A stretch of 63,541 bases of DNA, counting the filler, from an uncultured bacterium (GTDB taxonomy: Bacteria > CAZSTA01), in assembly GCA_964609495.1 (NCBI GenBank). It is 2 parts of 2 records of this genome, joined end to end, with 100 filler letters (N's around TTAATTAATTAA, not from the genome) between each part and the next. Parts side by side here need not be neighbours in the genome. Positions count along the whole stretch, not along the records: positions 32,035 to 63,541 come from CAZSTA010000019.1; 1 more part is not named here. The stretch is one strand, 5' to 3'. Positions within the stretch are counted from its first letter, which is position 1; every line of letters starts with the position of its first letter. The position numbers and the translations under genes are program-made. Under the pieces are notes generated by a model. That model did no database searches and was not told the DNA's origin. It was given only the letters and a program-made list of their open reading frames with translations. This document shows, one piece after another, positions 32,519 through 58,089 of this stretch.

Positions 32519-33726
32519 TAGTCTTGGAAACAATAGACATATAATTAGCTTATAGTGTGCAAAGTAGCGATTCACTTCCCTACAATTTGGATTAGTGTTG
32601 AGAAGAAATACCAATTAAGCAAGATAAGGAGCGAGATTGCGAAGATTAGATCGATGCGATTTGTTACAGAGAAGTATAGCATTAAAAGCTACTATCTTAC
32701 GCTGGATATATTCGGTGATCCTTCTTACTCCTTTTAGATGCTTCGGCAACTTCAAGAAATCTAAGCTATGCTTCAATTGATCTATAACTTCTTCTATCAC
32801 TACTCTTTTATGATACCACTTTCTCCCTCTCTTCGTCCCATATTCTAAGATACCTTTATCTCTTATGCTCCCTCGTTCCTTCAACTTCTCCCTCTGCTCT
32901 GGGCTCAATTTCAACCTTAAATCTGCTCCTTTCCGAGGATTAGGAGGTATTATCATCTGTATCCCTAGCTCCTCAAACGCTAGCTCATATACTTCATTAG
33001 CATCATATCCTTCATCTCCTATTCCCACTCTCATCTTCCTCCTTTTCCTCTCGGAGATGCGTCTTCGCATCTGGTTAAATAGCTTCTGAGCTATCTTCGA
33101 CTCCCTCTTCTCCGCAGTAGTCCAGAAGAAAGCTATTATTACTCCGTCTCTGGTAACTATAAGATGTAGTTTGTATCCATAGAAGATATTATCATCTGAA
33201 GTAGCTCCCCACTTAGCTAAATGATCCTTGCGGGAGCGAGGGATATCAGTCATATCTATAGCTATTAGAGAGAGATTACGACTGTTGAGGAGACGGGTAA
33301 GGAGGCGACGTAAGAGCTTCTCTAAGAAGGCTTTGACTGACGGATGATGAGAATGATTATTGAGTGTTCTCCGAGAGGGTATCTGAGATAGTCTAACTCC
33401 GAGCAGTTGTCGATAAGTAGGATCATGATAAGCAGTAAGCTTCTGGTGAAGAAGATTGATAGACCAACCTTTGGTAGTAGCGAGAAGTAGCATAAGAGCG
33501 GATTTAGCTACGGTCTCGTCGGATAGGGAGCGACCAGATTTGGGAGAAGAAGGACGCCCCTTTTTTCTGACAAGTTCTCTTCGGTAATTTTTTTCAGTAT
33601 GTCAAAGAGCTGTTTTAGCTTTAACAGTAGCGATCATTCCTTTCTGAGAAAGAAGTAAAATGTTATGATCTATTTTACCATATCTCTGGAATTATCGCCA
33701 CTTTCTTATCATTCTTTCCAACACTA
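32519..33726 (-). mobile_element. ~1.2-kb DDE insertion sequence (IS5/IS982-like)
   Basis: Ends TAGTCTTGGAAA / TTTCCAACACTA (11 of 12 match); flanked by TGTT duplication (or ATGTTT if ends are 1 nt shorter). Confidence 0.88.
32615..33637 (-). pseudogene. DDE transposase with in-frame TGA at codon 12
   Basis: IAIDMT, YGYKLH, GDEGYD, YHKRVVIEEV; frame extends upstream of 33493 to ATG 33637 through TGA at 33602-33604. Confidence 0.7.
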
Positions 33727-35017: not shown

Positions 35018-35614
35018 ATGCATAAGCGGAAACTCTGGAATAATAAGAAGATATACCCGACTTATGAACCCTACCCCATAAGCCGGGATTTTGAGGGGCA
35101 GGCATATTCAACAAAGGATGCTTCCCATGGACAGTCTATTGACAGCATAAAGGAGCAAGCCCCTGAAGAGCTCTCCCTTATCAGTGACCCATCACCTTCT
35201 GGAGACTGGTTTCCACCACGACCGATAACTCCCGATGAGCAATCTTCTCTTCGTCCCCTGCACCTGCTCAACTCCCTCTTCACCGAGCGTCTCAACTTCC
35301 TGCAATGCGCCCTTGAGGAGCTGCGAGATGCTCAGCATGACCGGGAACGGCTTACTGACAAGGCATTTGAGGAACTCGATTCTGAGATACAAGAATGCGA
35401 ACATTCCTTATCCCTCACCTTGCTCATTGACCCAGAGCAAAAACGGCACCTCCAACGCCGCCTCCTTGAGCTCAAGCGGGAACGCCGCCGGGAAGCCCTC
35501 TTGAGCTGGCGAGACCTTGTCTGGCTCAGAGGTGAAATCAGGAAGCTTCAACGCGAGATCGATACTCTCGGAAGAACAGCCAAGTCAACTAAAAACCGCA
35601 AGGCTCCAACGTGA
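35018..35614 (+). CDS. Hypothetical coiled-coil protein
   Basis: E/R/L-rich helical C-half; GTGA overlap with next gene. Confidence 0.65.
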   Translation: MHKRKLWNNKKIYPTYEPYPISRDFEGQAYSTKDASHGQSIDSIKEQAPEELSLISDPSPSGDWFPPRPITPDEQSSLRPLHLLNSLFTERLNFLQCALEELRDAQHDRERLTDKAFEELDSEIQECEHSLSLTLLIDPEQKRHLQRRLLELKRERRREALLSWRDLVWLRGEIRKLQREIDTLGRTAKSTKNRKAPT

Positions 35615-37551
35615 TCAGTATGTACTTCAAGGAATTCAAGTCCCTCTTGGCAAAGCTCCGCCCGGTCATAGGTGAGCTTGCCGATGCCTTCTGGCTGGCT
35701 ACTCTCCTCGATCCGAGTCAAGAGAAAGATATGCACGCCGTTGCTCAGGCCATGGCAGCCGAACTGCTGAATGAGAGCTACATCGGAAGACACATCCTGC
35801 TTGAGCCACCTCCCAAAGAAACTGCAAAGGGTGAGTACCCGTTGGGGATTATCACCTACGCGGACAAACCTGTGTGTGCCTTCGGCTTGAGAGAAAGCGA
35901 CCTGCCACAACACGTGTTGATTCTGGGTCGCTCTGGTGCTGGGAAAACCAACGTTGGTTACATCCTGGTCTGGAATCTTCTGCGTGCGAGAAAGCCTTTC
36001 CTCGTCCTAGACTGGCGCAAGAACTACCGGCACTTCCTAAACCGGGCTGAAGGGAAGGATATCCTTCTCTTTTCCCTGGGAGAGGAAGAATCGCTATCCT
36101 TCAATCCCCTTGACCCGCCACCTAACCTCATCCAGAGCCAACGGGAAGCATACATGCGGGACATAATCTCTATTATTTGCACGACTTACCTGCCCGGCCA
36201 CCAACTGCTTTCCACCCGGGGAGTCGAATACTTATTCTTAAAAGCCTTAGCTGAGATTGAGGAAGAAGAACCGCTAACCTTCAATGATATTCGCCGATAT
36301 GTAGAGAATTACAAAGCTCATTCCAGAGAAATCGACTGGAAAGTTTCCGCGGTGAATGTTCTGTTCAAATTGACCACCGGTCCTATAGGTCGGCTTACAA
36401 ATTGTCTCGGCATCATAAGCCTTTCGGATATCTTAAACAAGCCAGTCATTCTGGAGCTTGACAGTTTAGGAAGTGAGACTGACCGCTCTCTTTTCACCCA
36501 GACCTTCCTGCTCTGGCTCTACTACTATCGCCTCGCGGAAGGGAAATCGCAAACCTCCAAACATGTCCTGATCGTGGAGGAAGCCCATAACCTATTTCTT
36601 CGCCGCGCCGATAATCGCCAATCCGTCCATGATATGATGCTCAGGCAGATGCGGGACTTAGGGCAGGCACTCGTTTTATTGGACCAAAACCCCAGCCTCT
36701 TGTCTATCCCAGCTTTGGGTAACACAGGAGTAACCATCTGCCTCAACCTCAAGCACGGAGATGACATAGAGGCTGCCGGAAAAGCCTTGACACTGCCGCC
36801 GGAGAACCGAGACTACATCGGCAAGTTGCCCATAGGATACGCCATAGTCAAGGTGCAGGACCGATGGCCAAGTCCCTTCCTCGTTCGCTTCCCCCAGTTT
36901 CAAATTTCCAGTCCTCTGAAGTCACCCTATACTGAAAGAAACCATATTCGAGGTTATTCCCTTAAACAGACTGTGGAGGAACTCCAGTCAGTCCTGAACG
37001 AAGCTATTCGGGCTCTTCCCCAGTCGGACAGAAGACAAAGGAAAGAGCAAGGAATAAGTGCGCAGGAGCGAAGTTTACTGCTCGATATCGTAAATTATCC
37101 TCTGTCAGTTATCACCGAGAGGTTCAAGAGGCTCGGCTGGAGTGCCCATACAGGAACGAAAATCAAATGGAGGTTGTTGGAAAAAGGATTTATTGAGCAA
37201 GAGAAAGTCAGCGTGCCGAAGGGTAGCGTCACTCTGCTCAAGCTTACTGAAGAAGGCACGAGATTTCTTGCTTCATCAGGGATTGAGGTGAAGGCGTTAC
37301 CGAAGAATGCCAGCTTGGAGCATGAGTATTATAAGGAATTGGTGGCTGAGCGTTACCGGGCAAGAGGTTACAAGGTGGAGAAAGAGGTCCTTATAGGTGA
37401 GGGGAAGTCCATAGATTTGGTGGCAATGAAAGGTAATGAGCGAATTGCGATAGAGATAGAGACCGGGAAGTCGGATGTAGAAGCTAACAAGAAGAAATGC
37501 AGAGAAGCTGGGTTTGAGAAAGTAGTTATCGTAAACACCTGCGGACGCTAA
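35611..37551 (+). CDS. HerA/VirB4-like (DUF87) ATPase with C-terminal wHTH and PD-(D/E)xK domain
   Basis: GRSGAGKT, VLDW, LIVEEAH, QMRDLG, DQNPS; C-terminal IDLVA..IAIEIETGKS. Confidence 0.8.
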   Translation: MISMYFKEFKSLLAKLRPVIGELADAFWLATLLDPSQEKDMHAVAQAMAAELLNESYIGRHILLEPPPKETAKGEYPLGIITYADKPVCAFGLRESDLPQHVLILGRSGAGKTNVGYILVWNLLRARKPFLVLDWRKNYRHFLNRAEGKDILLFSLGEEESLSFNPLDPPPNLIQSQREAYMRDIISIICTTYLPGHQLLSTRGVEYLFLKALAEIEEEEPLTFNDIRRYVENYKAHSREIDWKVSAVNVLFKLTTGPIGRLTNCLGIISLSDILNKPVILELDSLGSETDRSLFTQTFLLWLYYYRLAEGKSQTSKHVLIVEEAHNLFLRRADNRQSVHDMMLRQMRDLGQALVLLDQNPSLLSIPALGNTGVTICLNLKHGDDIEAAGKALTLPPENRDYIGKLPIGYAIVKVQDRWPSPFLVRFPQFQISSPLKSPYTERNHIRGYSLKQTVEELQSVLNEAIRALPQSDRRQRKEQGISAQERSLLLDIVNYPLSVITERFKRLGWSAHTGTKIKWRLLEKGFIEQEKVSVPKGSVTLLKLTEEGTRFLASSGIEVKALPKNASLEHEYYKELVAERYRARGYKVEKEVLIGEGKSIDLVAMKGNERIAIEIETGKSDVEANKKKCREAGFEKVVIVNTCGR

Positions 37552-37783
37552 AAGGGAGTGAAGGGTTTTGGCATACCAAAAGCCACTATAGTCAAGATTA
37601 TTTCTCTATTTTTATCACTCGGCTGATGGAATATGTAAATCGTCTCATTGTTGTATCTACCACTTATTTAAGAAATCCCTGATAACATCTTCTAGGGGAA
37701 TGAATTTAGATAAAGCTCGGCTATCAATCTTTTTCTGCCAGAATTATAGAAAATCTTTTATCCGCGCCAATCGCACTGCCTAC

Positions 37784-37797
37784 AAAAAACTTATAAG
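37784..37797 (+). promoter_or_regulatory. Archaeal-style BRE/TATA-like motif before cdc6
   Basis: AAAAAACTTATAAG, TTATAA 20-25 nt before ATG, no Shine-Dalgarno. Confidence 0.4.
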
Positions 37798-37815
37798 TTT
37801 TATCAGAACGACGAT

Positions 37816-38859
37816 ATGCGTATGCGAGCAGACGGTGAACGCATCATACTAGCTAATCCAGACATCCTCAGCGGGAGTTATGTCCCTATTCACGGTCGGG
37901 AAGCCCAGCTCAAGGAGATAAGCCTTTGTCTCCGGCCCATCACGGAAGGCAGAGAGCCGGTGAACTGCTGGTTGCACGGGAAGCCAGGTGTGGGCAAGAC
38001 TGCTACTGCTTGCTGGATCCTGCGAAAGCTTGAGAGTGAAGCAGGTATTCGCGGCGTGTATGTCAACTGCTGGGAGAACCCCACCTTCTTCTCGGTGCTG
38101 GAGTGCATCGCTAGGAAGCTGCGTATGCTTGGAGCTGAGAAACTCAGCACCTCCTTCAAGCTTGAAAGGCTGAAGAGACACCTATCCCACGAGCGGATGG
38201 TCCTCGTCCTTGACGAGATCGATCAGCCCGTGCCAAAGGAACGCAATGCTATCCTCTACAACCTCTCTGACCTTTCCACTGTCGGTCTGATATGTGCCTG
38301 CAACTCTCAGTACGTGTATTTCGGCTTGGAGGAAAGGGTGGAGTCCAGACTTAACCCCGCTCGGATACTTTTCGATGAGTATTCGCGGGATGAGCTATTT
38401 GGCATTTTGGACCAGCGTGCCCAATACGCCCTCGTTCCCCGGACCTACAACGAGGCTCTCCTGCACGTAATTGCCCAGCTTGCGGACGGGGATGCCAGAA
38501 TAGCCATCCAGACCCTGAAGAACGCGGCCTACCTGGCGGAAAAGGAGGATCACGAAAAGATCACGGCCTCGCATGTAAAGTGTGCGTGGAATTCCGCGAA
38601 GGACTTGAAGAAGACCTATCTGCTCCGCAAGCTCACCGATCATCACCGTCTGTTGTATGAATTGATTGCGAAGAACCCAGGTATTTTATCTGGTAATCTG
38701 TGGCGGCTGTATCTGAAGACGTGCGAGGCTAGGGACATTAAGCCGATAGCGGTGAGGACATATTCGGACTACTGCAACAAACTTGCGGAGCTTGGATTAG
38801 TCGAGGCAAAGAGGGCCGCGATCCAGGGGAAGGTGAGGGAGTTCCGCATCGTGAGCTAG
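37816..38859 (+). CDS. cdc6: Orc1/Cdc6-family AAA+ initiator-like protein
   Basis: GREAQL, GKPGVGKT, VYVNCW, VLDEID, ESRL, GDARIAI, C-terminal winged helix. Confidence 0.88.
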   Translation: MRMRADGERIILANPDILSGSYVPIHGREAQLKEISLCLRPITEGREPVNCWLHGKPGVGKTATACWILRKLESEAGIRGVYVNCWENPTFFSVLECIARKLRMLGAEKLSTSFKLERLKRHLSHERMVLVLDEIDQPVPKERNAILYNLSDLSTVGLICACNSQYVYFGLEERVESRLNPARILFDEYSRDELFGILDQRAQYALVPRTYNEALLHVIAQLADGDARIAIQTLKNAAYLAEKEDHEKITASHVKCAWNSAKDLKKTYLLRKLTDHHRLLYELIAKNPGILSGNLWRLYLKTCEARDIKPIAVRTYSDYCNKLAELGLVEAKRAAIQGKVREFRIVS

Positions 38860-38953
38860 ATCGCTTAGTACTTCGCCATCTCCTCAGCGCCAAATTGCCA
38901 ATAAAAGTAGTCAATCCTCTCTAAAATGTTTTTCTATAACTAACCAATGTTTA

Positions 38954-39523
38954 TCACTTAATACCGAGTTCTTTCATTGCGGTGAGAAAGAAATCGAGAG
39001 AATTCCTTACCTTTTCTGTTCCTATCTTCTCAGCTTCTTTGGTATAAAAACCCCTTCTTTCCAGATTCTTGATCCTTTCAAAAGCATCATTAAGGGCAGT
39101 TTCCAGACCCCATTTATTTTCCCCGGCAAAAATAAAGAACCTTGCTATCCCCACTGCTCCAAAGGAATCCAGCTTGTCGGCATCGAACAATATCTTTTCC
39201 TCAATTGTTTTAGGGCTTTTCTGGGAGAAGGTGGAATGGGTTTCTATACATCTTATTATCTTTTCCCTCTCTCTTTTCGAAAATCCCGCTCTTTTTAGAA
39301 ATTCTTCGGGTAATTTTGAGCTGAAATGCTCTTTTTCACTTCGGTCTATGTCATGCAAAAGAATAGCCGGAATAAGTATATTAAGGTCAGGCTTTTCGTT
39401 CTCAGATATCCTCAAAGCATAATCTAGAGTTCTTTGGATGTGATCCCAGCCATGCGAAGGGGATTTGTACTTATGGTAATGTTCCTTCAAAAGCTTCTCT
39501 AAAGACCTAATTTGTGAATTCAT
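38954..39523 (-). CDS. HD-domain phosphohydrolase
   Basis: HGWDHIQR, LLHDI, H, DADKLD. Confidence 0.88.
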   Translation of the reverse strand: MNSQIRSLEKLLKEHYHKYKSPSHGWDHIQRTLDYALRISENEKPDLNILIPAILLHDIDRSEKEHFSSKLPEEFLKRAGFSKREREKIIRCIETHSTFSQKSPKTIEEKILFDADKLDSFGAVGIARFFIFAGENKWGLETALNDAFERIKNLERRGFYTKEAEKIGTEKVRNSLDFFLTAMKELGIK

Positions 39524-39553
39524 AGTTTATTTTAGCTCTTGAAGAAATAAAAG

Positions 39554-40222
39554 TTATATTCCAAAGGTTCTGTTTCTCCTACTGTACTCGTCCAGGACTT
39601 TTTGGATATCCTCCTTAGATAACTCCGGGAAGAATTTGGGTATGAACTCAAATTCAGTATATTGCATCAGGAAAAAAGGTCCGTCCGATATCCTCTTCTC
39701 CTTGGCTGTTCTTACTAAAAAATCGATCGGGGTATTAATCATACAGTTTCTAATTATATTATTGAAGTTCAGTTTCTCTCCTGATTCTATCGTTTTCTTT
39801 ATGGCCCTTAGCAAATCTCGAGTTCCTGAATAACCAAGCAAAAGATTAAATCTCCGCTTGGTATAATCCTTTGTTTCCGATTCAATACTATGGATAGCTT
39901 CTTGATAATAACGAGGTAAGAGATGCCTTTCTCCCGATACGAGAACTCTAATATTATTTTCATGTAACAGGAGATCCTGACTAAAATCTATCAAAGTCCT
40001 AGCCTGCACATCAAGAATAGGCTTTAAATCATTATCGTTCCTCTTTGTAAGGTTGGCATAAGATAAGCCAAAGAATGTGAATTAGTTTATCTTATCATCC
40101 ACTAATATCCATTCTACAAGGCTTCTCGCTGTTCTCGCTGCCTGCTCATAAGCCTCTCTGAGTGACAAATTATGCTTTTTGGCATATCTTCTGTCGCCGT
40201 CAGGGATTAATAAAACATGCAT
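39554..40222 (-). pseudogene. cis-prenyltransferase (UppS-like) with one in-frame TAA
   Basis: MHVLLIPDGDRRYA.., DFLVRTAKEKRISD, RRNRTFG; ATG 40222 overlaps upstream stop (TAATG); TAA at 40082-40084. Confidence 0.82.
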
Positions 40223-40872
40223 TATACTACCTTCTTCTCTATTTTCTTCGCTCTTTTTACCATATCAATTGTCCACATAACTTTCTCGGGTGAGAATTTT
40301 TTGGTGTATTTTACTATATTCTCTTCCGATGTGCACAGGAAAACACACTTTTTGGTATTTTTCTGAGCCATACAGTTTAGTTCAACGGCATAAGTCTTCC
40401 TTTTTGTATAATATTCTTGAGCTCCCGCAAATAAACCAGCCAGCATCCAATCAACGGGATATTTTTGTGGCCCATATCTGTTCTTCACCTCTTGGGCAAA
40501 AGTAGAACTCTCCGCTTCTAACAACATAAAATTCTTGTCTTCATCAACCTTTATTGTCTTGAATTTCCCCCAACCAAAAGCGTTTAATACCTTGCAGGAA
40601 ATATCCACAACATTAACTAGCGTTTTCTTTAGAGGAATACCATGCGTTTGGACAAAATCCCCTCCCATGAACTTGCTGGCCAGGAACTCGGCAATACCGT
40701 AATCAAGGCCAAAGACTTGGGAAAGATGGACATACTCTTTAGCCAAATGGGGAAGGAAATAAAGAACGACACTTTCCTCGCCAAATCTTATATATTCGTC
40801 TTTAAACTTGAGATAATGAAACATCCCAAATTCTTTGAGCAAGTCCAGCATAATCATTCTCCATGATTTCAC
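40222..40872 (-). CDS. V4R-domain ligand-binding protein
   Basis: FGWGKF, AGLFAG, VELNCMAQ....CVF. Confidence 0.75.
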   Translation of the reverse strand: MKSWRMIMLDLLKEFGMFHYLKFKDEYIRFGEESVVLYFLPHLAKEYVHLSQVFGLDYGIAEFLASKFMGGDFVQTHGIPLKKTLVNVVDISCKVLNAFGWGKFKTIKVDEDKNFMLLEAESSTFAQEVKNRYGPQKYPVDWMLAGLFAGAQEYYTKRKTYAVELNCMAQKNTKKCVFLCTSEENIVKYTKKFSPEKVMWTIDMVKRAKKIEKKVV

Positions 40873-40875
40873 CTT

Positions 40876-41601
40876 TTAGTCTTCCAAGGGTTTGATGGAC
40901 AACCCATTCTTATTTATTTCCATAGGGAATATATCCAAGGGATGGTCTACCCTTCTCATTTTGATTACTTCTAATGTTCTGGATACCTTTGTTTCCAACT
41001 CACTGATCTTTATCTTAATCACCCCATCGGAGATAAATTTCAAAACCTCGCTGGCAACTTGGAAATCCTTCCCATCTTCCGAGAGCAACAAAACTGTTTG
41101 ACCTGCCTTCCTTAATTCTCCTGCTAATTCATACAACCCTCTTCTCACATCAGCAAGAGAAGGAGTAAAAAGCGAAAGTTGAGAGCTACGTGCTAGAGGG
41201 GCTTTCCATCTTGGTTTGGTGATATATAAGGACAAGCATGTTACTGTATCCAGAACTAACCTGTCTGGCTTCTTTTTCTTGATAGTATTCACTATGTTCT
41301 TAAAAGTCTTGTCAAAGTTGAAGGGCACCATGGTCAATATAGACAAGTTTTTCTGCCTATCTAAATCCCAACCAAAACCCAATGCCGTCTTTTTAAGACT
41401 TTCCATTGGTTCTTCAAAAGAGATATAGAGGACTTTTTCTTTATTTTTGGCACCTTCCCTGGCAAATTGGAGACCAAAAGTGGATTTACCTGCTCCTGCA
41501 TCCCCAATGACTTCGATCAAAGAACCCTTTTCAAAACCACCTTGCAGTATTTTATCCAAGTATGAAATACCTGTCTTGATTTTTGTATTCATTATTATCA
41601 C
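40876..41601 (-). CDS. Single-domain KaiC/RAD55-like ATPase
   Basis: KTGISYLDKILQGG, GDAGAGKST, YISFEE, LVLDTV, DGVI, LEVIKMR. Confidence 0.9.
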   Translation of the reverse strand: MIIMNTKIKTGISYLDKILQGGFEKGSLIEVIGDAGAGKSTFGLQFAREGAKNKEKVLYISFEEPMESLKKTALGFGWDLDRQKNLSILTMVPFNFDKTFKNIVNTIKKKKPDRLVLDTVTCLSLYITKPRWKAPLARSSQLSLFTPSLADVRRGLYELAGELRKAGQTVLLLSEDGKDFQVASEVLKFISDGVIKIKISELETKVSRTLEVIKMRRVDHPLDIFPMEINKNGLSIKPLED

Positions 41602-41736
41602 AAATATATTTTTGGATTCCGGGCTTTATATATTTATTCGTATCGGCATCACCCGCAAGAGGTGGGCAAAACAGCCAAAAAACAAAGGTTTCAAATCTTC
41701 TTTATGAAAAACGAAAACATTGATGAAATAAGGGTG

Positions 41737-41884
41737 CCAGAGTGGGTGAAATTCGTAATGTCCTGTGTTCAGGTCCACCAACCTGCTCTCCGCAAATATA
41801 TGCTCAAAGAAAAAACTGAAGAAACGAAAACACCAGAGTGGGTGAAGTTCGTGATGTCCTGCGTTCAGGCCCGCCAACCTGCTC
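41737..41884 (+). repeat. Two 52-nt direct repeats, 96-nt period (41737-41788, 41833-41884)
   Basis: CCAGAGTGGGTGAARTTCGTRATGTCCTGYGTTCAGGYCCRCCAACCTGCTC; 5 differences, all transitions. Confidence 0.9.
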
Positions 41885-42046
41885 ACAAAAAAGCTTAAAT
41901 ACTTCTTCCGCCAATTATTTCTTGAGAGGTACGCATTATCTGTGAAAAAAGGGCATTACACTTTTCGCTTCATGCCCGGCAGGGGCATGGCATGAAAAGC
42001 ACAATGCCTACGTGCCTCTCTTAAAGATGTCCGTAGGTATTCACTC

Positions 42047-43240
42047 ATGCCAACTGAGTCTGAGGCAGCAGATAGAGAATTGAACAATGCCAAGAAAAGG
42101 GTCCAAAGGTTAGATACATCCCCCCGCAATCGAAAGGACATCTTGGATTTTGCATCTTTCTGCTTCGCAGAGGGTCTGAGCACTCGCCGTGTGATAAAAT
42201 ATATGAGCACTCTTTGCACTATAGCTAAGCGACTTCGCAAAGAGTTTCGCAAGGTCACTCGTGCGGATATACAAGCGTTAGTAGAAGGAATCGAACGTTC
42301 AGACTATTCTGGTTGGACCAAGCGTGATTTCCGTATTACCCTGAAGAAGTTTTTTCGCTGGCTTCGGGGCACGGAAGAATATCCAGATGAAGTAAAGTGG
42401 CTACGCACAGGCTTCCACGATGAACGCCAGAAGTTGCCAGAAGAATTGCTCACCCCGCAGGAAGTGCAGGCAATGATTGTAGCAGCCCGGACCGCCCGCG
42501 ACAAAGCCTTGATTGCTTCACTTTACGAAAGCGGGTGTAGAATAGGTGAGCTTCGCTCACTTCGCATCAAGCAGTTACAGCAGCACTCCTACGGTTTTCA
42601 AATCACAGTCGAAGGTAAGAAACGCCCCAGGCGACTCTTGCTTATCGCTTGTGCTCCCTACCTTACTACTTGGCTAAATCAACATCCTAGAAGGGAAGAC
42701 CCGAACGCCCCTTTGTGGATTAAATCAGACCACCGTGCCACGCAGCTCTCCCACGCCCGGGTTACGCATATTCTCAAAACATCTGCTAAGCGAGCGGGAA
42801 TTTCCAAGGCTGTGAACCCTTACAACTTTCGCCACAGCAGAGCCACCCACCTTGCCAATCACCTTACTGAAGCTCAAATGAATGTGTACTTAGGATGGGT
42901 CCAGGGCTCTGACATGGCTTCAAGGTATGTGCACCTCTCCGGCCGAGATATAGACCATGTCTTGCTCAAACTCAACCACATACCCACTTCTGAGGAAGAT
43001 AAGGCCAAAGACAACTTCTCCCTAAAGTCCTGCGCAAGGTGTAATCTCAAGAACCCACCAGGCCACAAGTTCTGCTCCCGCTGTGGTGCCATCTTGGACG
43101 AAGAGACTGCCCGAGAGGAAATGAAGAAAAACCTATACAAAAGCGGAGCAAGTGGAGTCATGGAGAGGCTTATTCGGGATGACGAGTTCCGGGCTATGCT
43201 CGAAAGGAAAATCGAGGAACTCGGCAAAGATAACAGGTAG
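42047..43240 (+). CDS. Tyrosine recombinase/integrase with C-terminal zinc ribbon
   Basis: ESGCRIGE, K, FRHSRAT, LGW, RYVH; CARC..FCSRCG. Confidence 0.92.
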   Translation: MPTESEAADRELNNAKKRVQRLDTSPRNRKDILDFASFCFAEGLSTRRVIKYMSTLCTIAKRLRKEFRKVTRADIQALVEGIERSDYSGWTKRDFRITLKKFFRWLRGTEEYPDEVKWLRTGFHDERQKLPEELLTPQEVQAMIVAARTARDKALIASLYESGCRIGELRSLRIKQLQQHSYGFQITVEGKKRPRRLLLIACAPYLTTWLNQHPRREDPNAPLWIKSDHRATQLSHARVTHILKTSAKRAGISKAVNPYNFRHSRATHLANHLTEAQMNVYLGWVQGSDMASRYVHLSGRDIDHVLLKLNHIPTSEEDKAKDNFSLKSCARCNLKNPPGHKFCSRCGAILDEETAREEMKKNLYKSGASGVMERLIRDDEFRAMLERKIEELGKDNR

Positions 43241-43341
43241 AGTGCTTATTCTCGTCCAGTAACTTCTTTTTCTCCTTCATCTGCACGAATAGCAAGCCCT
43301 CTCTCCGACAGCCTAAAATGCTGACCTGCCAATAGGCTGTC

Positions 43342-43527
43342 ATGACAAGCGACTATCGTTCTGATCGTCCCCGCCCCAGAAAATGTAGCAAGTGTATCTG
43401 CGGGATTGAGAATGACAGGGGCATCTGGTGTGCAATACTCAAGAAAATCCCTACTCCAAGGGAGGTCAAACGCTGCCGCCGCTTCTGCCCGAAGGTGATA
43501 CTAGATGATGCTGAAAACGATGCTTAA
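43342..43527 (+). CDS. Small Cys-rich hypothetical protein
   Basis: CSKC..WC..C..F pattern in 61 aa. Confidence 0.45.
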   Translation: MTSDYRSDRPRPRKCSKCICGIENDRGIWCAILKKIPTPREVKRCRRFCPKVILDDAENDA

Positions 43528-43657
43528 GAGAAAGAATTTCAATTCACGCTTCCTCGCAATCACGCCAAACAATCAGCAGGAGATATACCGGGTTTGCCCT
43601 GGTGTTAAGCTCAGGGATTGCCTAGGCTTTACCTAGCGGGGGAGGAGGAGGTATCTT

Positions 43658-44104
43658 ATGAGAGGAGTTATCGAGCAGATTTGGGAGAATGAAACCCGCA
43701 ATGGCAAGAAATACCTTACCGTGCGGATAGACGGCGAACGATACAGCATCTGGGATAAGAAGAACTTCGACGACCTTCAGGAAGGAAAAGAAATCGAATA
43801 TGAATTTCGCCAGAGCGGGAAGTACAAGCACCTCACGGATGTCAAACCAGTAGGGGAAGAAAAAGGTTCAGCGGAGCAAGGAGAGCTAACCTACAGACCA
43901 AGTAACAAGGATATACATATCACCAGGATGAGCTGCCTGAAATCAGCCACCGAGATCGTGGCGCCTGTTTACATGGATATAGAGAGCAAGCAGGAGCTGG
44001 TCATAGAACTCGCCAAGCGGTTTGAACGCTACGTGTTCGAGGATGACCTCGGAGCTTTAACTCAGGAAGATGAAGGTGAGCAGGATGCAGGGAAGAGTGG
44101 ATAA
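43658..44104 (+). CDS. Hypothetical protein, OB-fold-like N-domain (paralogue A)
   Basis: Strong GGAGGAGGAGG RBS; beta-rich N-domain plus ITRMSCLKSA helix. Confidence 0.7.
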   Translation: MRGVIEQIWENETRNGKKYLTVRIDGERYSIWDKKNFDDLQEGKEIEYEFRQSGKYKHLTDVKPVGEEKGSAEQGELTYRPSNKDIHITRMSCLKSATEIVAPVYMDIESKQELVIELAKRFERYVFEDDLGALTQEDEGEQDAGKSG

Positions 44105-44549
44105 AATCTGGCACAACCAGAGGACAGACGGCTCTGAGTACTGGGCACTGTCCATTAACGGTGAGCGTTACACCATTTGGGAAAAGGACCTCATAGCAGA
44201 CATCAAGGAAGGAGACTTGGTCGAGTTTGCCTTCACCTTTTCCGGTCGCTATCGCAACCTCACCGGGATCAGGCGACTGGCCTCTTCAGCCTTCACCACC
44301 GCAGACAAACTCGTTTCAGACCCGACATCCCTGCGAATAACGAGGATGAACTGTCTCCGGACCGCCGCGGAGATGCTCAAGGACACCACCTTGCTCCCAG
44401 AGCAGAAAGTCTCCTTGGCTATAACCATGGCGCAACAGCTCGAAAACCATGTCTTGGGTAACCCGGAGAATTCTGAATTGCAAGAGGTGATGAGACAAAA
44501 GGAAGACGACTGGCCAGACCTTCAAGACCAGCAGGAGGGAGGAGCATGA
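44085..44549 (+). CDS. Hypothetical protein, OB-fold-like N-domain (paralogue B)
   Basis: Aligns with paralogue A (GERYSIWD / GERYTIWE, ITRMNCLRTA); start placed at MQGRV. Confidence 0.7.
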   Translation: MQGRVDKIWHNQRTDGSEYWALSINGERYTIWEKDLIADIKEGDLVEFAFTFSGRYRNLTGIRRLASSAFTTADKLVSDPTSLRITRMNCLRTAAEMLKDTTLLPEQKVSLAITMAQQLENHVLGNPENSELQEVMRQKEDDWPDLQDQQEGGA

Positions 44550-45292
44550 ACGATGAACCTCACTTGTCGGTCAGCCAGCTCAGGACATACATGCAGTGCC
44601 CTTTGCAGTATTTCTTCCGCTACGTCTGCGGAGTGGAGAGACCCCCTACTCCCGAACTCATTCTGGGCCGCACTATCCACGAGACGTTGCACGACAACTA
44701 CCGCCAGAAGATTGAAAGCCATCGCGATTTGCCCCTTTCCCAGATTACGGACATCTTCAGCGACCACTGGGACAGGGAAGTCAAGGAAGCCGAGTTTCAA
44801 GATGATGAGAACTCCGGACACTTCAAGGACCAGGGCATCCAGTTGCCTACCGCCTACCACCAAGGTGTCTCCCCCGTGGTCCAGCCCATTGAAGTGGAGA
44901 AGGAATTCCTTTTTGATACCGGAGTTACCGAACTGCCGCTGAAAGGCTACATAGACCTCATTGACGACCAGCACTACATCATAGACCACAAGACCAGCAA
45001 GCGGAGCTTCCCCAAGGACGCCGCTGATAGGAACATCCAGCTGACCGCCTATGCCTTGGCCCATCGGAAACTTTACGGAGACAAAGAGAGAGGCGTGAGG
45101 ATGGATATAATGGTAAAGACCAAACAGCCCAAGATACAGCAGCTGCAGTCAACCAGAAGTCAGGCGGATATAGACCGCTTCCTGCGCCTCGCTAAGAATG
45201 TCGAAGATGACATAAAGGCTGGCATCTTCTACCCGAATGAGAACTATATGTGCAGTCCCTGTGGGTACAGGGAAATGTGCGATGAGTGGTAG
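44546..45292 (+). CDS. RecB/Cas4-like PD-(D/E)xK nuclease with Fe-S Cys staple
   Basis: LSVSQL..YMQCP, GRTIH, GYIDL, IIDHKT, QLTAY, CSPCGYREMC. Confidence 0.88.
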   Translation: MNDEPHLSVSQLRTYMQCPLQYFFRYVCGVERPPTPELILGRTIHETLHDNYRQKIESHRDLPLSQITDIFSDHWDREVKEAEFQDDENSGHFKDQGIQLPTAYHQGVSPVVQPIEVEKEFLFDTGVTELPLKGYIDLIDDQHYIIDHKTSKRSFPKDAADRNIQLTAYALAHRKLYGDKERGVRMDIMVKTKQPKIQQLQSTRSQADIDRFLRLAKNVEDDIKAGIFYPNENYMCSPCGYREMCDEW

Positions 45293-45497
45293 AAAGTTTT
45301 TACCCCGTGCTGCTAATCTTTCCTTGGCGAAACAATCCTGGTGGGCAGCCTGCCTCTTTTAACCTTTTGAGTGAGGCTTTCTAAGAAGGGGTTATTTTTA
45401 ACTAAAGTCTTTTTTTTCTACTATTACTTACCCCTCTTCCAAGGCTTCCAGGGGCTTCCTGGTGGCTCTCCGTTGATTTTAGAAATGATGTCAAACA

Positions 45498-46058
45498 TCA
45501 ATCTCCATTCCCTATCTCTTCGTAAGGCTTGCTCATCCACTTGATCTCCTCTTCTGTGGGAACCTGGTAGCCGCCCGCAACCCTGCCATTGGTAAGCTCC
45601 CTCAGTGCCCTTGGATCGATCATAGATGCAGGATTGAGTGAAGGAGCAGGCTGGAAACTGCTGGAATATCCTGCAAGCCCTGGGTTGTTGAGCTGGGCTG
45701 CATTGGGGGTGATGTTGAAGCTGACCTTGGCGCCGCCCGGAGGCATGCCATACATCCCCTCAGTGTAGGCAGGAAGGGCAGTTCTTATAGTGTCGTTGGC
45801 TATTGCGTTCATTGTCCTCAGGTTGTTGATGTGCTGGCGGTGTAGCCTGAGTATAATCCACAAAATCCCAGCCGCGAAGATGATGACTAAGATAGCCCAG
45901 TAAATCATCTTCTTCTCTTCCATAGTGAAAGCTTGCGACATCGAATTTGCCAGCGACACGAAAAAGGCAATGACCAAGATAGAAATCAATATCGCTATCG
46001 TCGCGCCGATGAAAATGGCTATGATTTGCCCGGTAGTGAGGCCATTTTCTCTTTCCAT
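45498..46058 (-). CDS. Membrane protein, two transmembrane helices
   Basis: Two hydrophobic stretches; GGAGG RBS. Confidence 0.7.
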   Translation of the reverse strand: MERENGLTTGQIIAIFIGATIAILISILVIAFFVSLANSMSQAFTMEEKKMIYWAILVIIFAAGILWIILRLHRQHINNLRTMNAIANDTIRTALPAYTEGMYGMPPGGAKVSFNITPNAAQLNNPGLAGYSSSFQPAPSLNPASMIDPRALRELTNGRVAGGYQVPTEEEIKWMSKPYEEIGNGD

Positions 46059-46169
46059 TTTGATTTTCCTCCTTTTGTTAGAACTTCGTTCACTTCGTTC
46101 TTATCTCATTTTTTGGCTGAAAACTGGCAGAAATCGTAAAATGACTGATGCACGAACGAAGCCAAAAGT

Positions 46170-47555
46170 TCAGCTCTGCAAAGACTTTTTTGCCTCGTTC
46201 AGGCCCAATAAATAGAACACTTCGTTCAGCCTTCGTTCGTTCACTTTGTTCGTATCGGTTTTGTATCTTTTCGGTAAAATCACCTTGAGTTTATTCAAGC
46301 TCTCCATAATATTGGCAGCCGTCCTGGAACCGAATCCCAAATCTTTCACAAGCTTTTCCCGCGACGCTTCACCCCTGTCGCGAAGGTAGAACCAGACCTC
46401 GACTGGGATATTCTCAGCCTTTATCTTTTTCCTCTCCTTCAGGCCTCTCATTTCGTCAGGTTCTCTTTCTTCTCTCAGCTTTTCAAGGGGAGAAAAGATA
46501 TCCCCGCTCAGCAAGATAAGCCTTGGCTTTTCCATACTTTCTGCTGTCCTGGGTAAAGCTTTAATCCTGCTGGGGTTGACAAGAGGGGTCTGAACCCGCT
46601 GGTTTCTGGGCCCCAGCACCACGACAGCGTCGCCTTCACCTTCAAGAAGATGGCAGTCAAGCTTGGGATGTCCTGAAACCAGGGCACTTTCTCTGGCGTT
46701 CCAGACCTGGAAGATAACCCTGAAGGTCAAGTTCTGCCTGATTACCGGGGAGCCTCCGAAGACGTCCTTGCTCCCGGTCTGGGTTGCCAAAACCAGGATT
46801 ATCCCTTCGCTCCTTCCCCTTTCAATCAGACGCTCCACATAAAAGGTAGCCCTCTTCTTCTTAGCTAAAAGATTGGTGAACTCGTCAAGCACCACCACTA
46901 CCCTCTCGCCTTTCATCACCCGTTTGCTCCTTAGCTCCATCTCCACCTCAAGTTCGGAAAGCATGTGGGTTATGATGTCCGGGTCATCGGTTATCGGGTA
47001 AAGCAGGGGTTTAGTCCCTTCGAAATCAGCGAAGTCCATAATCTTGGGGCTGTAGATTACGAGCCTCGTGCTGCCATCGGTGCGTTCCGCAATCTGCGTT
47101 ATGATACAGCGCAGGAATTCGCTCTTACCGCTTCCGCTGGTACCGAATATTCCGAGATGGGGCGCCACATTAGTCCCCAGCTTCTGCATCACCACTTCCC
47201 CTTTCGGGCTTACGCCCAAGATGATGTTCAAGGGGTTGTCAAGGGCCCTTGGACGGAAGCTCCGCACCCTCTCCGTAACGCCCGTCAGGGTCACCAGTTG
47301 GCGGTGAGGGGAGGGAATCATTAACTCATAGCATCCATTTCCGAGCGTGAGCGAGACTTTAGCTGGCTTAACGCCGAGGGCGACCGCAAGCTCCTCTTGA
47401 TACTTGGCAATGTTCTTGACATCGGGGATACTGCTGTAGATGGGGAAGGTAAGGTGTCTCGGTCCGATGATGGGCTTCCCGACAACGACATTCTTTTCAA
47501 GCAGAGAGAAAACGTCGTAAATCTTATCTATGCAATACAAAAGATAAATGCGCAT
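46170..47555 (-). CDS. FtsK/SpoIIIE-domain ATPase
   Basis: PHLGIFGTSGSGKS, VVVLDEF, RGRSEGIILVLATQ, LLEGEGDA. Confidence 0.85.
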   Translation of the reverse strand: MRIYLLYCIDKIYDVFSLLEKNVVVGKPIIGPRHLTFPIYSSIPDVKNIAKYQEELAVALGVKPAKVSLTLGNGCYELMIPSPHRQLVTLTGVTERVRSFRPRALDNPLNIILGVSPKGEVVMQKLGTNVAPHLGIFGTSGSGKSEFLRCIITQIAERTDGSTRLVIYSPKIMDFADFEGTKPLLYPITDDPDIITHMLSELEVEMELRSKRVMKGERVVVVLDEFTNLLAKKKRATFYVERLIERGRSEGIILVLATQTGSKDVFGGSPVIRQNLTFRVIFQVWNARESALVSGHPKLDCHLLEGEGDAVVVLGPRNQRVQTPLVNPSRIKALPRTAESMEKPRLILLSGDIFSPLEKLREEREPDEMRGLKERKKIKAENIPVEVWFYLRDRGEASREKLVKDLGFGSRTAANIMESLNKLKVILPKRYKTDTNKVNERRLNEVFYLLGLNEAKKSLQS

Positions 47556-48394: not shown

Positions 48395-49342
48395 TTAAGG
48401 AGCAATAATTATCTTGATAGCCTCCTTTCTTTCTAATATCTTCAATGCCTCTAAATAATCAGTTAAAGGCATTGTCTTAGTGGTTAATTTCTTAACATTG
48501 ACCATCCCTTTTTCCAGGAGGCGAACTGCTGTTTCAAAGTTCTTCATTGGTTCCTTCCCCATGATCTTGGCATTCTTTATTACTAATTCGCGGTGAAACC
48601 AGATCGATTGGTCTACTAAAAAGTCCTCATCTGTATAACCAAAGATAATCACCTGTTCACCGGCTATCTGGAAAGAATTTTGGATTGATTTCGGATTCCC
48701 TGAACAATCTACAACCGTATTCACCTTAGAAGCAACTAACTCTTTGAAAGCATCTTTATCTTTAGGATTGATAACTTTATCCACTCCTAACTCTTTGCTC
48801 AACTCCAATCTATCATCAATTACATCTATTCCTACGATCTCGGTAGCTCCACTTATTTTTGCTAATTGAACAGCTATTAATCCTGCTCCCCCTAGTCCAG
48901 AGATCGCAGTACTTTTTCCTAATAGTGATCCAGCTAACCTGAAGGCATTGACCAGACAGGCGACCAATTCCCCAAAGGCAGCCTCCTCATACGAAAGCTG
49001 AGGCTTAAATTTGACTACTAGATGAGGATCACGAAGGACATACTCCGCATGTAATCCTCCTCCCCAACCAGTCATTGCTACTCGATCGTCCTCTTTAAGT
49101 TCAGTTACATTCTTTCCTACCTTTACAACTCGACCAGCTCCCTCATGTCCTGGATCCCCTAGAGAGCACGGATATCCTCTCCACATACTCTCTTTATATA
49201 AACCTTTATATACTTTTATCTCATGCATACTGCATATAGAGATTGCCTCAACTTTGACCAGCACCTGATCATCGCTAGGTTCTGGTATTCCAACATCTAC
49301 TATCTCCAATTGATAAGGAGCGTTTATTCTAAGTGCTTTCAA
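48395..49342 (-). CDS. Zn-binding medium-chain dehydrogenase
   Basis: ICSMHE, GHEGAG, GLGGAG. Confidence 0.85.
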   Translation of the reverse strand: MKALRINAPYQLEIVDVGIPEPSDDQVLVKVEAISICSMHEIKVYKGLYKESMWRGYPCSLGDPGHEGAGRVVKVGKNVTELKEDDRVAMTGWGGGLHAEYVLRDPHLVVKFKPQLSYEEAAFGELVACLVNAFRLAGSLLGKSTAISGLGGAGLIAVQLAKISGATEIVGIDVIDDRLELSKELGVDKVINPKDKDAFKELVASKVNTVVDCSGNPKSIQNSFQIAGEQVIIFGYTDEDFLVDQSIWFHRELVIKNAKIMGKEPMKNFETAVRLLEKGMVNVKKLTTKTMPLTDYLEALKILERKEAIKIIIAP

Positions 49343-49393
49343 TTCTACTACCTCTCTCTCCTAATTTTGAAGATAACCGCAATTATCATATCC

Positions 49394-50251
49394 TTATAGT
49401 ATCTCTGGATAGGATTCCCTGACTATTTCCCTTAAGTATTCCAAGCTCTCCTTTAGTGCCTGATCGGGATTCTCTGTCGGATGAATATCGAAAGCCAGAT
49501 ACCCCTTATAACCAACATTTTTAAGAGCAGTTATAAATTTAGAGAATCCCTCTCGTCCGATAGTTCCTTTCCCCAGCGGCCTAGCTTGATCTGCCGTAGC
49601 GTCGTTATCATCTAAGTGGACATAGACTAGTTTGTCTCCTACCTTCTCAACAGCCGCTCGCAGATCCTCACGGACAAGGTGATGATGTCCACAATCAATA
49701 TTTGCACCAACCCCGGGAACCTCCCTGGATAGAAGGATGAAGGAATCGGCATTTGCTATAAATGTTCCCGGCTCCGGCTCTATAGCAAAGGTTACCCCTT
49801 GCTCCTTAGCATAAGCAACGCTCTCTGCCACAAATTCAACAGTCCTCTGCCAGGCATCTTTGAATGATACCCCATCTGGTAAGGGGACAGTTATGCTAGT
49901 GACAATCTTCCCACCTAGCTTACGGCAAAGATCAAGAGAATCTTTCACGTATTGAATGGCTGACTTTCGCTCATCCACATCATCGTTACACATTCCTACG
50001 GGATGAAGATCAATGGTTACGAAGGTGAGATCTCCCTCTTGAGCTATCTTCTTCAACTTTGAGATCCTCTCATCATTAAAGGAACTGACCCCATTGCTGG
50101 GAAGTGCAGAGCGTTTCGCCATCTCATCCATCCAGACCCAGATCTCAACCCCATCTCCTCCTAAAGCAGATATCCTTTTTAATGCTTCCTCCAAGGGCAA
50201 TTTGTCCTTAACTCGACTTTCCCAAGCCCATGCTGGAAAACAGAATTTCAT
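49394..50251 (-). CDS. Sugar phosphate isomerase/epimerase (xylose-isomerase-like TIM barrel)
   Basis: GDGVEI, AIEPEP, NIDCGH, YVHLDDN, GYKGY. Confidence 0.85.
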   Translation of the reverse strand: MKFCFPAWAWESRVKDKLPLEEALKRISALGGDGVEIWVWMDEMAKRSALPSNGVSSFNDERISKLKKIAQEGDLTFVTIDLHPVGMCNDDVDERKSAIQYVKDSLDLCRKLGGKIVTSITVPLPDGVSFKDAWQRTVEFVAESVAYAKEQGVTFAIEPEPGTFIANADSFILLSREVPGVGANIDCGHHHLVREDLRAAVEKVGDKLVYVHLDDNDATADQARPLGKGTIGREGFSKFITALKNVGYKGYLAFDIHPTENPDQALKESLEYLREIVRESYPEIL

Positions 50252-50290
50252 AAGAAAATACTCCTTTCGTTATGGAAGATATTTAATACT

Positions 50291-51163
50291 CTATCCTTTC
50301 AATCCAGTTAGAGCGATCCCCTGAATAAAGGTTCTTTGAGTGAAGAAAAAGAGGATAATAATAGGGATCGTTATCGCCGTAGAAGCAGCCATCAGCAGAG
50401 CCCATTCGGACTCGTGCTGTCCAACAAACTGCTGTAATCCGATAGCAACCGTGTAATTTAACTCATCATTTATATAGATCAATGGCCCTAAGAAGTCATT
50501 CCATCTGCCTAAAAATTCGAAGAGAACTACTACAGCTAAAGCCGGCTTTGAGAGAGGGATAATTATCCTGGCATAAATCCCGAACTCGGAGCATCCATCT
50601 ATCTTGGCCGCATCCGATAACTCTTTCGGTATAGTCATAAAGAATTGGCGGAGAAGGAATATAAAGAAGGGACTTCCGAAGAAGGCAGGGACGATAAGAG
50701 GTTTGAAGGTACCAACCCACCCTAAACGCCTAAACAATATGAAAAGAGGGATCATAGTAACCTGAAAGGGAAGCATCATAGTGCTTAAGACTAGGATGAA
50801 GACCGCATTTCTCCATTTCCACTCCATCCGGGAGAAAGCATAAGCTACTAAGGAGCTCGAGATCATAGTTCCTATAACACAGAGAATACAATAAAATAAA
50901 GTATTCTTTAAATAGGTCAGGAAAGGGAAGATCATCAAGGCCCGAGGGAAATTGCTCCATATTACAGGATTTGGAATCCAAACCGGTGGGATGTTAAAGA
51001 TCTGAAGATCCGATTTTAGAGAGGTGGAGAGCATCCAAAAGAAAGGGAGCATAAAGAAGAAGCCCGAGGAGATCAGGATTATATGCGTTATTCCTTTTCC
51101 TACTCTATTTTGAAAGCTTTTACTTTTGAATAGGACGAAGCCCTTTTTCGAATTTACTTGCAT
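50291..51163 (-). CDS. Carbohydrate ABC transporter permease
   Basis: IPKELSDAAKIDG EAA loop, WNDFLGPL. Confidence 0.93.
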   Translation of the reverse strand: MQVNSKKGFVLFKSKSFQNRVGKGITHIILISSGFFFMLPFFWMLSTSLKSDLQIFNIPPVWIPNPVIWSNFPRALMIFPFLTYLKNTLFYCILCVIGTMISSSLVAYAFSRMEWKWRNAVFILVLSTMMLPFQVTMIPLFILFRRLGWVGTFKPLIVPAFFGSPFFIFLLRQFFMTIPKELSDAAKIDGCSEFGIYARIIIPLSKPALAVVVLFEFLGRWNDFLGPLIYINDELNYTVAIGLQQFVGQHESEWALLMAASTAITIPIIILFFFTQRTFIQGIALTGLKG

Positions 51164-51165
51164 AG

Positions 51166-52059: not shown

Positions 52060-52093
52060 AATCGCCTCACCCTCTTAAATTTAGGATATTTTG

Positions 52094-52123
52094 GGGTCTG
52101 TCAGGTAGGAGCCTGGCAGACCC
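52094..52123 (-). other. Stem-loop between binding-protein and permease genes
   Basis: GGGTCTGTCAGG-6nt-CCTGGCAGACCC; typical differential-stability hairpin. Confidence 0.6.
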
Positions 52124-52130
52124 TCTAGTT

Positions 52131-53444: not shown

Positions 53445-53504
53445 CTTTTCATAACACCTCACTTTTTTAATATTTTTGTCTGTTTTAAGTTACAAAACGA
53501 ATTT

Positions 53505-55070: not shown

Positions 55071-55082
55071 CTTAAAAGGATT

Positions 55083-56613: not shown

Positions 56614-56621
56614 AACTTACC

Positions 56622-57659: not shown

Positions 57660-57675
57660 ATGAATCGGTAGCTCC

Positions 57676-58089
57676 TTAAAGCTCTGGAGCTAAGGCCCAT
57701 AATACATCTAACCTCTCTCCAGAGAAATTATACCATTGATGTTTAAGGTCAGCGGGTAGGTAGAAGCCTTCGCCTTCCTTCACCTTATATATCTGGGTAT
57801 CGTCTACTACCACTACTCCCTTGCCCTTCAAGATGTAATATACCTCATCTCCCTTATGAGGAGCTGAAGGATCGAGATTATCGAATGGTGATACATAAAA
57901 TATACCGAAGTGGATCTTATCAGTGCTTGCGAAAATCTCGATTAATCCTTTCTTTTCCTCTCCGTGAATAAGAGGGAGCTTATCCTTCTCCGAGATCACC
58001 ATACAACGCTTATCCTCCGGCTTGAATGGATATTTCCCTTGCCAAAGGAGTCTTTCTCTCCACTCATCACCTTTCTTCTCCTCGCTCAT
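57676..58089 (-). CDS. Cupin-domain protein
   Basis: PHKGDEVYYILKG, PADLKHQWYN. Confidence 0.85.
   Translation of the reverse strand: MSEEKKGDEWRERLLWQGKYPFKPEDKRCMVISEKDKLPLIHGEEKKGLIEIFASTDKIHFGIFYVSPFDNLDPSAPHKGDEVYYILKGKGVVVVDDTQIYKVKEGEGFYLPADLKHQWYNFSGERLDVLWALAPEL

Follow-up and report, generated by a model that had tools for sequence, protein, structure and literature searches.

Introduction

Few archaeal regulators have expanded as much as the KaiC-like ATPases or are so poorly understood. To our knowledge most of them have neither a known ligand nor a known pathway, and the V4R proteins are likewise orphan sensors. Makarova, Galperin and Koonin reportedly described the KaiC-like ATPases in 2017 as archaeal signal transduction hubs. 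That proposal is cited in the excerpted text of PMC5847659, which, like the excerpted text of PMC2614490, also presents V4R as a small-molecule-binding domain with a cysteine cluster. The NtrC-family regulators MopR, PoxR and DmpR are bacterial fusions in which the sensor is joined to AAA+ and DNA-binding domains. Excerpts of two further papers concern enzymes that enter the comparisons below: MM_0014 of Methanosarcina mazei is a versatile cis-prenyltransferase (PMC8131916), and YpgQ of Bacillus subtilis is a stand-alone (d)NTP pyrophosphohydrolase (PMC8177086). Here we describe a cassette of four genes, for a KaiC-like ATPase, a V4R protein, a divergent cis-prenyltransferase (cis-PT) and an HD phosphohydrolase, at positions 38954-41601 of a 63,541-nt stretch of DNA (the window, meaning this whole stretch), which consists of two contigs of a metagenome-assembled genome (MAG) joined by Ns and holds the cassette on contig C19.

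As in the archaeal KaiC hubs, a single-domain KaiC ATPase is encoded in the cassette beside a small-molecule-binding protein; unlike them, the locus also encodes an HD protein of the YpgQ type and a prenyltransferase paralogue dedicated to it. The V4R protein resembles MopR, PoxR and DmpR over the whole sensor fold of about 200 residues and in a Glu/Cys/Cys cluster, but it is stand-alone, the neighbouring ATPase is of the RecA/KaiC type, and no DNA-binding domain is attached. The module is thus a variant within the KaiC-centred archaeal modules; it is real, conserved, built from known domains and apparently undescribed. Our full-text searches, which covered neither supplements nor the 2017 KaiC survey, found nothing linking KaiC or V4R to prenyltransferases, which agrees with a first-pass annotation of this DNA whose author knew of no description of such a system.

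A four-gene module shared with archaea

The four open reading frames (ORFs) all lie on the minus strand, in the order KaiC-like ATPase (40876-41601), V4R protein (40222-40872), cis-PT (39554-40222) and HD phosphohydrolase (38954-39523), and are placed between an Orc1/Cdc6 gene and a tyrosine integrase gene. The KaiC and V4R genes are separated by at most 24 nt, the V4R stop codon overlaps the ATG of the cis-PT gene (TAATG), and 30 nt separate the cis-PT and HD genes. The G+C content of the four genes is 0.37-0.39, versus 0.50-0.54 for cdc6, the integrase and the other genes around them, so that both the tight coupling and the AT-richness reported in the first-pass annotation are borne out.

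That annotation had suggested a search for conserved four-gene synteny, particularly in DPANN and other archaea, and such synteny was found in small-genome (DPANN-like) archaea. The archaeal MAG contig L005 carries KaiC, V4R, cis-PT and HD genes in the same order and all intact, and on a second, L006, the end of a KaiC gene at the contig edge is followed by V4R, cis-PT and HD. Identity between the window and L005 proteins is 42% for KaiC, 49% for V4R, 62% for cis-PT and 36-38% for HD. Both source MAGs are about 1 Mb in size and belong to one archaeal phylum (S19e was found in 5 of 5 genomes tested), of which we scanned 215 genomes of 0.5-1.5 Mb each. A profile of the HD protein found a match at E <= 1e-20 in 63 of these genomes. 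The HD proteins of the module form a separate branch within the phylum, scoring at least 220 bits as against at most 146 for other copies, and this clade occupies seven places in six genomes, two of them being the L005 and L006 cassettes. At six of the seven places a V4R gene, a prenyltransferase gene and KaiC (or its end) were present within the stretch read; at the seventh (G217) we found the HD gene, a hexapeptide-repeat protein gene and V4R, followed by the end of the contig.

At four of these places (G084, G157, G227 and G062:C5) the prenyltransferase was of a different kind: the KaiC gene overlaps a gene for a trans-type polyprenyl synthetase of 341-342 residues, with V4R and HD genes also present. 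The trans-type identity was established by Pfam for the G084 copy (PF00348, 4.3e-22) and by BLASTP for those of G157, G227 and G062:C5, and the V4R protein of a trans-type neighbourhood matched PF02830 at 2.2e-11. Because a trans-prenyltransferase here takes the place of the cis enzyme while KaiC, V4R and the HD clade stay the same, the exchange ties the module to isoprenoid chemistry and strengthens the isoprenoid link that had been drawn from the window alone; as a replacement of a cis by a trans enzyme within one neighbourhood, it is also a clean case of non-homologous enzyme displacement. At one of the loci (L043) the HD gene overlaps a gene for a PF04240 carotenoid-biosynthesis membrane protein, a coupling that leans towards lipid synthesis. 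One further arrangement (V4R-KaiC-V4R-HD-cisPT) was seen in G224, the sole locus with such a neighbourhood among the 19 lower-scoring HD places read (89-146 bits).

At 11 of the 28 V4R loci of the phylum a KaiC gene is found within 1.5 kb, and KaiC-V4R is accordingly a general pair to which the prenyltransferase and this HD clade are specific additions. In metagenome data the V4R, cis-PT and KaiC clusters have longest contigs of equal size (5367, 14391, 3808 and 4713 nt), which fits co-location of the genes.

PRENYLTRANSFERASES are dedicated paralogues, as a canonical, higher-scoring enzyme was also present in every genome checked. For the cis type the canonical enzymes scored 150-271 bits by Pfam and those of the module 113-139, and for the trans type the corresponding values were 204-230 and 71-84. 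The canonical UppS of the window genome itself is encoded on contig C195 (270.6 bits), and the suspicion of the first-pass annotation that the cassette enzyme is not a standard UppS proved sound: it is an extra, divergent paralogue wherever we looked. The module trans paralogues keep both DDxxD motifs (L042 7294-8319, L043 7332-8360, L044 1949-2974, L047 179-1207). Judged by their residues, the cis and trans enzymes of the module look catalytically alive but altered at the substrate site. An attempt to read the chain length of the trans paralogues from the residues before the first Asp-rich motif was dropped, since the canonical paralogues of the same genomes also lacked the aromatic residue on which the rule relies.

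Assignment of the four proteins

The KaiC-like protein is 241 residues long as its longest ORF, with a likely start at the ATG at 41592 that would give 238 residues. It matched PF06745 with an E-value of 6.2e-46 (157 bits, against a cut-off of 26.6) and belongs to the KaiC family. Its Walker A motif is canonical (GDAGAGKST), and in our KaiC alignment (A4) the Lys, Glu and Asp columns that align with the P-loop, the catalytic Glu and the Walker B Asp are invariant. The window protein is 52-56% identical to orthologues P0034-P0036 and, as given above, more distant from that of L005. Circadian KaiC proper has duplicated domains, CI+CII, that together span about 500 residues; the window protein, a single domain of 241 residues, scored 116 bits against NF006799 (cut-off 408) and 73 against TIGR02655 (cut-off 546), and is not a circadian KaiC. 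A structure prediction for the complex of KaiC (A4) and V4R (A6), run without controls, scored 0.00 relative to a mark of 0.32, which speaks neither for nor against binding. In one archaeal subclade (L005 369-1115, L041 6879-7613 and P0037) a Phe or Leu replaces the Gly preceding the Walker A Lys (G..G.FKST, GALKST), and the ATPase activity of these orthologues may be altered or lost.

The V4R protein (216 residues as its longest ORF, with a probable start at 40857 or 40851 by comparison with homologues) was not recognized by Pfam at the gathering cut-off, its match to PF02830 (E-value 3.2e-4) reaching 21.1 bits where 31 are needed, whereas its paralogues in sister loci do pass (44.1 and 41.5 bits). 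A profile built from nine V4R relatives matched the sensor domain of MopR at 5.6e-4, and an AlphaFold2 model from a 37-row alignment had a mean predicted local distance difference test score (pLDDT) of 93.2. The top Foldseek matches of this model were the phenol-sensor domains of MopR, PoxR and DmpR, with E-values of 3.5e-9 to 2.4e-7 and template modelling (TM) scores of 0.64-0.77, followed by the V4R protein MJ1460 and the TRAPP subunit Bet3. Residues E164, C167 and C176 are invariant in the 37 rows and align with the ETHC...C stretch of MopR. We regard the assignment as secured by the MopR profile match, the AlphaFold2 model and the Foldseek matches to phenol sensors: by its predicted fold and its Glu/Cys cluster the protein is a V4R/MopR-type sensor. 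The subfamily is a rare one: a search of 5.8 billion proteins gave nine clusters, and one of 1.84 billion gave 16 representatives at E <= 1e-30.

The cis-PT gene has 222 codons, one of them a nonsense codon. The C-terminal 151 residues that follow it matched PF01255 at 7.2e-28 (98 bits, rising to 139 bits when the codon is read through), and the N-terminal piece of 46 residues matched the N-termini of UppS proteins. The cis-PTs of the module are monophyletic (support 95/93), in a clade whose 23 rows are the window protein and 22 clusters at >=47% identity. The divergent motifs DGDRR and GLSYANL, to which the first-pass annotation had drawn attention, are present in the window protein and conserved across the clade, whose signature comprises DGDRRY, a His to Tyr change, FTFFGLSY.N and RTFG. 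The clade keeps the columns of its alignment (A3) that match, in UppS, the Asp of catalysis, the Asn acting as base and the Arg/Arg/Ser that bind isopentenyl diphosphate (IPP); the conserved columns of A3 are Asp, Arg, Ser, Asn and Arg..Arg.Ser. A model of an intact orthologue (pLDDT 94) superposed on E. coli UppS (1x07) with a TM score of 0.89, and by domain, fold and catalytic residues the protein is a cis-prenyltransferase. It differs from UppS in falling under every NCBIfam equivalog cut-off (with the 151-residue C-terminal query TIGR00055 gave 75 bits against 109.55, and the PRK models were far under theirs), in being a second paralogue beside a canonical one, and in its clade-specific substitutions. 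Atypical cis-prenyltransferases with the same fold were among the PDB matches (lavandulyl and cyclolavandulyl diphosphate synthases), and Rv3378c is another atypical member of the class; a Foldseek search with the model gave TM scores of 0.82-0.92 for long-chain, short-chain and irregular synthases alike and so did not tell them apart. The relationship to MM_0014 is distant (E-value 1.6e-8).

The HD protein (189 residues) matched PF01966 at 5.5e-10 (40 bits, cut-off 22). Its profile (A2) found as best matches among solved structures YpgQ (5dqv; 1.8e-27, 99 bits) and YedJ of E. coli (3gw7; 2.5e-26, 96 bits), and its metal ligands, H...HD...D, are invariant in A2 and agree with the ligands listed for YpgQ. 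Domain, ligands and similarity to solved members thus place it in the YpgQ/YedJ family, although it did not reach the equivalog cut-off of NF007515 (60.6 bits versus 286, E-value 1.5e-16). Unlike YpgQ, which is stand-alone, the module HD proteins are co-operonic with prenyltransferases and form a branch of their own.

A nonsense codon in the window copy

Codon 47 of the cis-PT gene is an in-frame TAA (40082-40084, minus strand), so that the gene is not an intact ORF. The first-pass annotation had only implied this, in speaking of a "repaired" enzyme; the TAA is there, and to it must be added a bacterial host that the annotation left unstated (S6 was present and S19e absent in the genome, which is 99.45% complete). 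The corresponding column of the clade alignment holds Glu in 19 of 22 sequences, Thr in two and Ile in one, and a single change from GAA would produce the TAA. Since TAA also ends three of the four cassette genes (KaiC, V4R and cis-PT itself), we read codon 47 as a stop. Reassignment of the codon was rejected on the same observation, and the break in the KaiC gene of G149 is a TAG instead. A metagenome contig (L004) that is 100% identical carries the same TAA; it may derive from the same data and may not be independent of the window. None of the 16 invariant columns of A3 is altered in the window protein, whose terminal branch is short (0.22 versus a median of 0.41), and because of these two features the lesion is either recent or a sequencing error. 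Unless it is the latter, the local copy of the module is probably inactive. In G149 (G149:C18; L041 6879-7626, 8256-9428) the KaiC TAG sits where relatives have Glu.

Proposed function and alternative explanations

The cassette may well be one copy of a module, conserved in archaea, for the regulated biosynthesis of a specialised isoprenoid compound, an interpretation that we hold tentatively and rate as close to, but somewhat short of, an even call. A dedicated divergent prenyltransferase, cis here and trans in the sister neighbourhoods, would build or transfer a prenyl chain, and the YpgQ-family HD protein would act on the product or on a co-substrate, taking off phosphate or pyrophosphate. 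The MopR-like V4R protein could bind the hydrophobic product or an intermediate and thereby control the adjacent KaiC-like ATPase, by analogy with the DmpR/MopR-type regulators, in which a V4R sensor domain gates an ATPase domain; production, or a response, would then follow how much of the compound is present. We infer such a module, including all its biochemical roles, its ligand and a coupling of V4R to KaiC, from the conservation of the gene set, the exchange of cis for trans enzyme, the status of the prenyltransferases as paralogues and the folds. It would offer a testable ligand class (isoprenoids) and a controlled pathway for one KaiC-V4R pair, and would bear on lipid metabolism in reduced-genome (DPANN-like) archaea, whose supply of lipids and carrier lipids is an open question.

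A number of observations weigh against specialised isoprenoid synthesis. Cis and trans prenyltransferases yield different double-bond geometry, and therefore a product shared by the two kinds of neighbourhood is not obvious. The local cis-PT is broken, and its whole clade carries substitutions (Asn to Asp, His to Tyr, Trp to Leu or Val, and Arg to Thr in the C-terminal RxG). GQxxD, KT and GK, all three found in canonical paralogues of the same genomes, are missing from the trans paralogues of the module, which may not use IPP for elongation in the usual manner. With substrate-site residues altered in both, it may be that neither module prenyltransferase makes a plain polyprenyl diphosphate. 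The module is rare, occurring in 9 of the 215 genomes even when G149 and the truncated G217 locus are counted, and of the 19 HD loci read that scored lower (89-146 bits), 18 have no KaiC, V4R or prenyltransferase neighbours. KaiC-V4R pairs were also found without any prenyltransferase, so that KaiC with V4R may be a regulator of general use. In G149 the KaiC gene (with its in-frame TAG) and V4R are followed by an unrecognisable ORF of 390 residues, and HD is missing; that ORF had no Pfam or Atlas match, and hhalign aligned it to the cis-PT over an N-terminal motif only, with a probability of 30%. Finally, the sole characterised member of the HD family, YpgQ, acts on (d)NTPs and not on prenyl diphosphates, according to the excerpted text of PMC8177086.

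The first-pass annotation had proposed a circuit for a prenyl-derived messenger that the prenyltransferase writes, the HD protein erases or matures, V4R reads and KaiC transduces; the messenger might be a prenylated nucleoside or nucleotide, and KaiC would relay it to targets downstream. The conserved unit and the isoprenoid link in this scheme have held up, but the local copy cannot "write" as it stands, because a nonsense codon interrupts its cis-PT gene. A messenger circuit is favoured by the conserved four-gene unit and by its dedicated prenyltransferases, which are divergent and altered at the substrate site; V4R is a bona fide small-ligand sensor fold, and winged helix-turn-helix genes adjoin the module in G149 and, more weakly, in G224; the known substrates of the HD family are nucleotides (PMC8177086, in excerpt) and a signalling-hub role has been proposed for archaeal KaiC-like ATPases (PMC5847659, in excerpt). 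Across the loci, however, neither an output domain nor a conserved target gene was seen, the cis/trans exchange argues against a precise reading of chain geometry, the coupling of HD to a membrane carotenoid-type enzyme at one locus is better fitted by lipid synthesis, and the literature searches gave no known precedent. We therefore consider a messenger circuit unlikely, and its broadest form, a hitherto unrecognised prenyl-messenger signalling system of small-genome archaea in which a dedicated prenyltransferase of either fold together with a nucleotide-type HD hydrolase makes and removes the signal, V4R reads it and KaiC relays it, and which moves on integrative elements across the boundary between archaea and bacteria, we regard as less likely again.

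A further alternative to specialised isoprenoid synthesis is that the module serves the plasmid- or virus-like element that carries it, by changing the host cell's envelope or carrier lipids for the sake of exclusion, defence or counter-defence. The window cassette is indeed cargo between cdc6 and an integrase, with a composition unlike that of the element around it; the L006 cassette adjoins an ArdC-like anti-restriction gene and an integrase 41% identical to the one in the window, and L044 has HNH, GIY-YIG and FokI-like neighbours. Yet PADLOC returned no family match for V4R, cis-PT or HD and gave KaiC a weak generic ATPase match only, no relatives were found in IMG/VR (with V4R and cis-PT profiles) or PLSDB (with the V4R protein), and the modules of G084, G224 and G227 lie on contigs of 214-853 kb beside ordinary genes, such as one of the uridine-kinase family in G224; an accessory role of this kind strikes us as improbable. 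Compatible with any of these functions is the view, to which we lean somewhat, that the window copy is a decaying relic, acquired with the element, unexpressed in its bacterial host and already losing genes. The in-frame TAA, shared with L004, the bacterial host with a compositionally foreign cassette, and the want of a sigma-70-like site upstream of KaiC all suit a relic, while the lesion is a single one, the three other genes are intact, the cis-PT retains its 16 invariant columns on a short branch, and L004, which may share data with the window, may not count as a second instance.

The carrier element and its bacterial host

The cassette is carried by a foreign integrative element of about 12.5 kb (35018-47555). 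Besides the cassette, Pfam identified genes for a HerA-like ATPase (35611-37551), Orc1/Cdc6 (37816-38859), a tyrosine integrase with a Zn ribbon (42047-43240), a PD-(D/E)XK nuclease (44546-45292) and an FtsK/HerA-like ATPase (46170-47555). The tetranucleotide correlation of the element with the genome, leaving out the cassette, is 0.537, compared with a 1st percentile of 0.876; the cassette itself (correlation 0.672, G+C content 0.38) differs from its carrier too. The cdc6 gene had 451 plasmid matches, all of whose named top genera are haloarchaeal, whereas of 60 further genomes from the domain to which the host belongs, only 1 had a Cdc6 homologue. The closest relatives of the integrase are those of archaeal pleolipoviruses (36-38% identity).

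Both flanks of the element tie it to the bacterial MAG. The right flank (48395-63485) has the tetranucleotide signature of the genome itself (correlation 0.968), and the left flank holds an insertion sequence (IS) transposase (32615-33493) with partial copies on contigs C102 and C61 that are 97-98% identical over the 37-92 residues aligned. An element of archaeal type in such a contig points either to transfer between domains or to a chimera made in assembly. Should the assembly be correct, the presence of this Orc1/Cdc6-integrase element in a bacterial genome would be a notable inter-domain transfer. At the ends of the element we found no tRNA gene, no Rfam family and no convincing att direct repeats, and PLSDB contained no near-identical element. 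Membership of the cassette in a known anti-phage defence system was considered and rejected on the outcome with PADLOC-DB v2, which matched 0 families for V4R, cis-PT and HD and for KaiC gave weak generic ATPase matches (mad8 2.9e-6, AbiO 7.4e-3).

The region upstream of the cassette, from the start of KaiC to the integrase (41602-42046), contains an imperfect direct repeat of 86 nt (41703-41788 and 41799-41884; family D1, 78% identity, 96 nt apart), and the repeat region (41703-41884) could be an origin or iteron-like region, or encode a small regulator. A plus-strand ORF (41662-41898) spans the repeat, has an internal peptide repeat and matches no Pfam family. Sigma-70-like sites were not more frequent than chance over 38700-42100 (8 found, 6.9 expected), and none lay within 41602-42046. 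Beyond the integrase, two tandem paralogues (43658-44549) adjoin the PD-(D/E)XK nuclease gene; they overlap (43658-44104, 148 residues, and 44070-44549, 159 residues), are 33% identical and belong to no Pfam family. Beside the L006 cassette, at 1963-2829 and 3432-4283 of that locus, we observed genes for an ArdC-like anti-restriction protein (with ArdcN and metallopeptidase domains) and for a protein that has a weak TIR-like match (CAP12/Pycsar effector, E-value 1.4e-3).

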